Assembly: GCA_964019425.1 (NCBI GenBank)
Contig: OZ025789.1
Coordinates: 620,001 to 684,000, forward strand
Source: Flectonema sp. DT1601
Taxonomy: Eukaryota
Direction: 5' to 3'
DNA: 64,000 bases
This document shows, in pieces, positions 51,654 to 51,879 of this stretch (its first letter is position 1; each line of letters opens with the position of its first letter). The position numbers and the translations under genes were made by a program. The notes under the pieces were generated by a model that did no database searches, was not told the origin of the DNA, and saw only the letters and a program-made list of their open reading frames with translations.

Positions 51654-51879
51654 AGTTCTTTTAAAATAGACCAATTGATGGATCCGATTTATTATTTAAC
51701 TGGAATGAAGTCCCTCAGAACTTACTGATGAAGGCCTAAGAGGGACAAGTAGTATAAGATTAAGGCCTGAAACTACGTATTCCACAGTGTATTATGGAAC
51801 AGCAGAACAATGTGTTTTTATAACTTTTCTTTTTTATATTTTATTTTAGTGCACTTTTTTATAACAAACTCATATTCTA
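51651..51879 (+). repeat. Left pseudo-LTR (229 bp)
   Basis: Appears identical to 56743-56971 by eye. Confidence 0.95.
51710..51776 (+). ncRNA. Predicted hammerhead ribozyme, non-circularly permuted (family 1), cleavage predicted after A51754 (GUA)
   Basis: Core CTGATGA 51725-31 and GAAA 51769-72. Stem I CTTA/TAAG, stem II AGGCCT/AGGCCT, stem III GTAGT/ACTAC, extra helix GTCCCTC/GAGGGAC. Confidence 0.8.

Follow-up and report, generated by a model that had tools for sequence, protein, structure and literature searches.

A putative type-CSG hammerhead ribozyme in both terminal repeats of a Penelope-like retroelement

The window, as we call the whole 64,000-nt stretch of DNA analysed here, carries at positions 51710-51776 a motif that probably acts as a cis-cleaving type-CSG hammerhead in the terminal repeats of a Penelope-like element. 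The C-S-G topology itself is already known (type CSG, PMC10085705), and the motif is, by its sequence, a putative further member; a Penelope-like element with a CSG hammerhead in each terminal repeat appears to be a new context. An earlier sequence-only reading had described the motif correctly and had missed its identical copy at 56802-56868, the flanking helix 51701-06/51779-84 and the retroelement. The features of the window are as follows.

51710..51776, plus strand: candidate type-CSG hammerhead of the 5' terminal repeat; cut predicted after A51754
51710..51746, plus strand: fourth helix, leader 51710-16 with 51740-46; corresponds to the helix that links stem I with stem II in CSG-1 and CSG-2
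51701..51784, plus strand: predicted flanking 6-bp helix, 51701-06 with 51779-84
56802..56868, plus strand: candidate CSG hammerhead of the 3' repeat, in the 3' UTR, identical to the 5' copy; cut predicted after A56846
51651..51879, plus strand: 5' pseudo-LTR of 229 nt, its first bases merging into the microsatellite
56743..56971, plus strand: 3' pseudo-LTR and 3' end of the element, followed by short TCTA repeats
52585..56688, plus strand: intact 1367-aa ORF with GIY-YIG, CxC, DKG and RT motifs
51880..52584, plus strand: 5' untranslated body of the element
51134..51653, plus strand: (TATC)130 microsatellite at the 5' junction, likely the insertion target
22390..22474, plus strand: second candidate CSG hammerhead of different sequence; predicted cut after C22436
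25717..25862, plus strand: decayed member of the 51710 family, 5'-truncated; it lacks the leader and about 10 nt of loop II
12520..12607, plus strand: decayed copy of the 22390 family; core C3 changed to T
7596..7712, plus strand: older, decayed 3'-end fragment of the 51710 family

Fold of the motif and chance controls

Recheck of the sequence returned every coordinate and pairing given earlier for 51710-51776, including the four helices, in which all 22 of 22 pairs are Watson-Crick. The core words CTGATGA and GAAA lie at 51725-31 and 51769-72. Stem I is formed by CTTA (51721-24) and TAAG (51755-58), stem II by two strands of the same palindrome, AGGCCT (51732-37 and 51763-68), and stem III by GTAGT (51749-53) and ACTAC (51772-76), giving stems I/II/III of 4/6/5 bp, while the leader GTCCCTC (51710-16) pairs with GAGGGAC (51740-46) in a fourth helix of 7 bp. 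Stems I-III adjoin the core, whose CUGANGA, GAAA, U16.1-A15.1 and H17 are all present; H17 is A51754 in the triplet GUA, and the cleavage site proposed after this nucleotide stands as a reading of the fold. The 5'-3' block order is C, S, G. This non-circular order of CUGA, NUH and GAAA had been pointed out before, together with a mention of reports of rare non-circularly permuted ribozymes; it matches type CSG, two sequences of which cleave in vitro (PMC10085705).

The stem I duplex is AU-rich and in isolation has a predicted energy of +0.3 kcal/mol. Position 10.1-11.1 is A-U rather than the G-C that is usual in hammerheads and is found in the other five tabulated members. Owing to this A10.1-U11.1 pair and the AU-rich 4-bp stem I, the predicted ribozyme may be slow. 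The 6-bp helix predicted between 51701-06 and 51779-84 encloses the ribozyme. Nested folding programs cannot score pseudoknots, and a search of the window against Rfam brought no family to its gathering score, nor did any hammerhead reach E<=10 at 51710; the two E-value matches in the window were discarded as chance miRNA models.

A custom descriptor, the search proposed by the sequence-only reading, recovered CSG folds again both in the window and in related elements. Applied in all six block orders to the whole window, it gave three matches (51725, 56817 and 22409), all of them CSG and on the plus strand, and no fold of the cyclic C-G-S order (types I, II and III) for the 51710 motif. Over 150 dinucleotide shuffles of the window, both strands included, CSG arose once at stems of at least 4/4/4 and never at 4/6/5. 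Viral contigs containing the three core motifs in C-S-G order had stems of 4/3/3 in none of 120 cases among the matches listed, and no RT relative was found in the viral contigs.

The host retroelement and further copies in the window

The sequence-only reading had named Penelope hammerheads as a precedent for dimers, a remark that proved right in an unforeseen way, since a Penelope-like element carries the motif in each of its terminal repeats. A direct repeat of 229 identical nucleotides (51651-51879 and 56743-56971) flanks the 1367-aa ORF at 52585-56688, in which a GIY-YIG motif devoid of Cys (aa 242-260) lies N-terminal to the RT. The same ORF contains CxC (aa 570-572, region 567-573), DKG (aa 689-691, region 688-691) and RT motifs A/B/C (aa 850, 924 and 968-972). 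The endonuclease (EN) region has no Cys between aa 241 and 477; R, H, E and N are kept and CCHH is absent. Pfam detected GIY-YIG in the ORF at E 0.007, below the family cut-off, and a profile of the ORF alignment matched I-TevI structures; of the 15 aligned homologs, RVT_1 was matched by seven, GIY-YIG by five and Josephin by five. The spacing from RT motif A to B is 74 in the window element versus 82-109 in relatives, and any insertion-in-fingers domain would at best be a reduced one. Judged by these motifs, the element is an intact Penelope-like retroelement with an N-terminal GIY-YIG, belonging to the Naiad/Chlamys clade, and its assignment as Chlamys-like follows from the cysteine-free EN. 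At the ORF C-terminus, a Cys...His region (56080-56440) aligns weakly to Josephin-like domains of homologs (E 0.17), in place of which some other homologs carry a UCH domain.

The element adjoins (TATC)130 on its left and about four repeat units on its right. This perfect array lies on the 5' side only; it may have been extended by the element's telomerase-like RT or be older than the insertion. A shared 3'-end motif ending in CTA occurs at 22368, 23066, 25699, 51870 and 56962, each time followed by CTAA- or TCTA-type repeats, an arrangement that likely reflects target-priming microhomology. VPS4 at 25923-27236 is 73% identical to that of Diplonema papillatum and closest to diplonemids, and the host lineage is thus likely a diplonemid, one of the marine protists, judging from this gene; one RT homolog carries the EukProt label 'Rhum', which we take to be Rhynchopus humris. 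Every ORF of the window that exceeds 200 aa is on the plus strand, which is also that of the element, and this would fit a polycistronic read-through unit of the kind expected from euglenozoan biology. A sigma-70 scan of the window was disregarded as irrelevant for a eukaryote. The interval 45033-49820 encodes a host protein of 1595 aa in which PA and laminin G domains were identified; its C-terminus, by eye, resembles a receptor-type cyclase.

The second CSG fold of the window (22390-22474) combines a leader helix of 11 bp with a stem I of 8, a stem II of 6 and a stem III of 4 bp, a GUC triplet and a hairpin between stems I and II, and its stem sequences are unrelated to those of the 51710 motif. 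It opens a short non-coding unit that shares the 3'-end motif of the retroelement. The surrounding interval, 22100-23080, comprises two diverged tandem non-coding units (22118-22234 resembles 22771-22887 at 71%), each ending in that motif and the second beginning with the 22390 hammerhead; they likely represent a non-autonomous, retrozyme-like family. Three decayed copies of the CSG families start at 25717, 12520 and 7596, and comparison by eye of 12520-12607 with 22390-22474 reveals apparent compensatory changes in the leader helix.

Recurrence in related elements and a split form

Among metagenome contigs, 151 RT relatives were identified. The analysis was limited to the best 80, and 65 of these extend for at least 150 nt past the stop codon. 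The descriptor identified CSG folds in the sense 3' UTR of 3/65 loci (L016, L033 and L046) and, in 7/65 (L006, L015, L018, L022, L036, L040 and L051), a sense-strand variant that we term the split form; among the same 65 loci there was no antisense match and no canonical order. Shuffling the locus tails 200 times produced 0.005 CSG and 0.02 split loci per replicate. Inspection by eye added four CSG loci, namely L054 (one stem I mismatch), L044 (same family, a stem III mismatch), L053 (long hairpin inserts and an additional A in front of the core) and L012 (truncated where the contig ends), as well as L034, a split form with a CGGA core. After these additions 50/65 loci have neither fold, many of them with short tails. 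Left uncounted were L023, L045 and L070, where the core, in some cases with a leader helix, is not accompanied by a complete fold, and L050, whose only fold is degenerate. Matches of SCG, CGS and SGC order on long spans or minus strands (L002, L030, L036 and L080) vanished at a stricter threshold and were dismissed as chance. Rfam, run on 40 of the best 80 loci, gave no match.

Since a MAFFT alignment of seven CSG members misregistered the cleavage strand, stem pairs were counted by a script anchored on the core in six members. Paired bases occupied 87/90 stem cells, partly by construction, and each stem column outside the two core pairs contained 2-4 Watson-Crick pair types. CUGANGA, GAAA, U16.1-A15.1 and the NUH triplet are kept in 6/6 members, whereas the stems vary freely; stem II is non-palindromic in the five tabulated members other than the 51710 motif. 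The fourth helix lies outside the descriptor, yet was present in 7/7 members tested, with an empirical p of 0.001-0.07 each. For the 7-bp helix of the 51710 motif an equal or better score occurred in 5/960 control windows, the full set for the seven members being 5/960, 0/955, 46/671, 17/820, 25/918, 0/512 and 0/586. The combined p of ~3e-9 is only rough, because the control windows overlap.

In a quick RT tree of 74 rows, built with Craig's reference proteins left out, the seven CSG loci make up 7/8 rows of one Naiad-type subclade (SH-aLRT 99), split forms fall in neighbouring subclades, and the window element stands apart in a 15-row protist clade (SH-aLRT 99). The sole fetched locus of the window's RT clade, L001, has no core in its 676-nt tail, and no CSG was found among the 9 rows of a further clade, to which L010 and L080, two loci with a Cys-free EN, belong. 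In the tails of L008/L009 and L047/L079, strong hairpins stand beside GAAA or a core word without matching any hammerhead order; they are possibly other variants or decayed ribozymes.

The split form runs from the 5' strand of stem II through the joining helix and the cleavage strand to the 3' strand of stem II with GAAA, and then through the joining-helix partner and the 5' strand of stem I to CUGANGA, which comes last. Joining the ends of a CSG fold and breaking it between A9 and position 10.1 thus gives this strand order. Examples are L006:3803-3880, L018:2065-2141, L022:2860-2940 and L051:4607-4704. The bases that follow CUGANGA have no partner ahead of GAAA and can instead pair upstream in a helix X of 3-9 bp, with one or two hairpins between helix X and stem II in 6/7 loci. 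Taken individually, helix X was significant in one of the seven loci (12/597) and not in the other six, which makes this detail tentative. The arrangement resembles the type-SGC hammerhead (PMC10085705) in running S, G, CUGANGA, but its stem II 5' strand lies upstream of S rather than after CUGANGA, and a standard SGC stem II of 3 bp is available in only 1/7 loci (L015). In the three-block rule of Eckert et al. 2023 (PMC10085705) the CUGANGA/stem II block is assumed to be uninterruptible. No description of the split form was found in the published literature searched, and the accessible text of PMC10162972 contains none of extra-helix hammerheads.

In the published consensus sequences of the Craig 2021 supplement, as far as its files were accessible, four CTGANGA words were followed by eye at 153 places (62+23+25+43), a count that misses line-broken words. 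Complete CSG folds were recognised by eye at six places in the Naiad file (54 families), with leaders of 8-14 bp, stems I, II and III of 5-6, 4-5 and 6-12 bp, and GUC. By header and file order, two of them belong to Naiad-3_Nbra ('HHR_half_core') and Naiad-2_Nbra ('HHR_core'), and the remaining four lie within or beside the nematode block. The split form was seen at nine places of the same file (File S5), some with mismatches, Naiad_Amil, _Aacu, _Anas, _Obim and _Ovul among them. The Chlamys file, to the extent available, showed by eye no clear CSG and one ambiguous place.

Proposed mechanism, alternatives and known systems

We propose that the RNA adopts the hammerhead core in cis and would be cut after A51754 and A56846, sites 5092 nt apart, so that one 5092-nt unit RNA would be released from a longer transcript, presumably host read-through or repeat-driven. 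The fourth helix may replace the loop I/II contact by tying stems I and II to stem III. Each of the three stems would have one half on either side of the cut, so the products should stay paired by 15 bp, whereas those of a type I hammerhead are held by stem I only. Products that are still paired could promote circularisation of the unit RNA by re-ligation, and more than one round of copying on such a circle would give more-than-unit cDNA and hence the observed structure of one unit plus the 229-nt repeat. We put forward the circle step only tentatively, as the weakest part of the proposal, by analogy with the circular-template model proposed for Penelope hammerheads in the accessible text of PMC4209133; the same structure can also be obtained from uncut linear RNA. 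For an Anolis Penelope-like element, the available part of PMC11167929 describes cleavage that needed protein and was dispensable for insertion in vitro, no RNA-seq ends left by ribozyme cleavage, and uncut RNA as the main substrate.

Whether the motif acts in cis or as a dimer had been left open by the sequence-only reading. An obligate dimer, cleaving by domain swap via the palindromic AGGCCT or between the two repeat copies, would be consistent with the identical palindromic strands of stem II and with the cofold energy of -46.1 kcal/mol against -39.6 for twice the monomer, which favours the homodimer by 6.5 through the palindrome. Dimeric hammerheads are known in metazoan Penelope-like elements, as the accessible text of PMC4209133 records; the short linkers probably make the cis knot tight, and the available text of PMC10085705 reports no concentration series for CSG-1/2. 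Nevertheless, the palindrome is not kept in the other five tabulated members, which weakens the dimer reading; a stable helix III is absent from the dimeric forms known, while the 51710 motif has one of 5 bp, and CSG-1/2, with the same linker lengths, cleave co-transcriptionally (PMC10085705). We therefore retain the dimer as an unlikely alternative. We give slightly less credence to a fold kept as structure, in RT binding, as a template-start signal or as a protein-gated ribozyme, with cleavage marginal or dispensable for transposition. The Anolis observations, the many Naiads without any core, and the weak stem I and A10.1-U11.1 pair of the 51710 motif would suit such a role, but the catalytic-core pattern is conserved in 6/6 members in which the stems vary. 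It is scarcely credible that the pairings are chance complementarities or that the sequence is a type III hammerhead cutting at GUC 51710-12. The flank of this GUC can indeed pair at 6/7 bases with the 3' strand of stem III, and Rfam finds nothing; stem I of that fold, however, is impossible (0/4 pairs), the shuffle and real-DNA controls are empty at the observed stems, and the fold recurs in related elements. A cis-cleaving type-CSG hammerhead is thus the reading we carry into the comparisons below.

Type CSG was defined from two similar soil-metagenome DNA sequences with five occurrences; CSG-1 and CSG-2 cleave in vitro, co-transcriptionally and at the analogous site, at 0.004 and 0.026 per min, and the type was described as absent from known organisms, with weaker evidence for biological relevance (PMC10085705). 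The 51710 motif shares with them the C-S-G order and the arrangement of stems I-III as a pair of pseudoknots. In all of them a 7-8-bp helix connects the 5' leader with the strand that follows stem II, a linker of 2 nt leads into stem III, and one of 4-5 nt separates stems I and II. The motif has no sequence likeness to CSG-1 and CSG-2 outside the core and differs in A10.1-U11.1, GUA and a 4-bp stem I. The CSG patterns shown by Eckert need CUGAUGAG (or CUGAUGAUG), CGAAA and a linker of <=10 nt (PMC10085705), and the 51710 motif departs from all three of these constraints, as no G follows CUGAUGA, no C precedes GAAA and the linker is 11 nt. The G10.1-C11.1 pair is a search constraint of that paper, outside its block definition. 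Whereas no host or genomic role was given for type CSG there, the 51710 motif sits in a eukaryotic retroelement.

The accessible text of Craig 2021 (PMC8557442) reports the Naiad/Chlamys clade as devoid of canonical hammerheads and containing unexplained 'half cores'; its listed cores fit no descriptor, and Naiads are concluded to thrive without canonical hammerheads. As far as that text describes them, these elements share with ours the N-terminal GIY-YIG, CxC, DKG, RT, pseudo-LTRs and microsatellite target, and Chlamys also the Cys-free EN motif. Unlike the Naiads described there, the window element lacks the CCHH and CX2-5CxxC zinc fingers at the EN and its likely host is not an animal. The host lineage is outside those listed in that text, the element's motif A-to-B spacing is 74, and its RT falls in a separate protist clade. 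As CSG folds occur at the ends of elements reported without a standard hammerhead, they are likely the overlooked ribozyme of these elements. On sequence grounds, the CSG fold likely accounts for the hammerheads 'missing' from Naiad/Chlamys elements and indicates a split variant that has not been described. We lean, with some reserve, towards a wider view: hammerheads of non-circularly permuted order would be the ribozymes characteristic of Naiad/Chlamys elements, from diplonemids to nematodes, cnidarians and molluscs, and would have been overlooked. In one Naiad lineage an inserted helix and a hairpin would separate CUGANGA from stem II and so break the three-block rule. If this is true, type CSG has a place in biology and is present in far more copies than two sequences. 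The present findings join two published loose ends, the homeless type CSG of Eckert 2023 and the unfitted cores of Craig 2021. Should these RNAs cleave, the rarest hammerhead topology would be common in eukaryotic genomes and missed by current Rfam models, and the claim that hammerheads are dispensable for Naiads would need reopening. The natural CSG variants also provide covariation and structural targets that were formerly lacking. Literature searched outside subscription journals, including the available parts of a 2026 retrozyme preprint, PMC13725137 and PMC13159263, made no link between CSG and Penelope; no paper on diplonemid Penelope elements was found, and one on a trypanosomatid mobilome was listed.

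In canonical Penelope-like elements the corresponding repeats contain hammerheads, according to the accessible text of PMC4209133, and those of Penelope, Neptune, Hydra, Coprina and retrozymes resemble the 51710 motif in occupying both repeats on the sense strand, with unit-length excision and circularisation proposed. The systems described there are circularly permuted type I hammerheads, often dimeric and with a vestigial helix III, whereas the 51710 motif has a non-circular order, a stable helix III and predicted cut products that share all stems. Likewise, helix III of the dimeric minimal Penelope hammerhead is vestigial and palindromic, and that of the 51710 motif has 5 bp and is non-palindromic. 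The CSG topology may be favoured because its cut ends would stay paired and could re-ligate into circular templates, and the long-standing question of what hammerheads do in Penelope transposition can be tested directly on an intact element whose repeats are identical.
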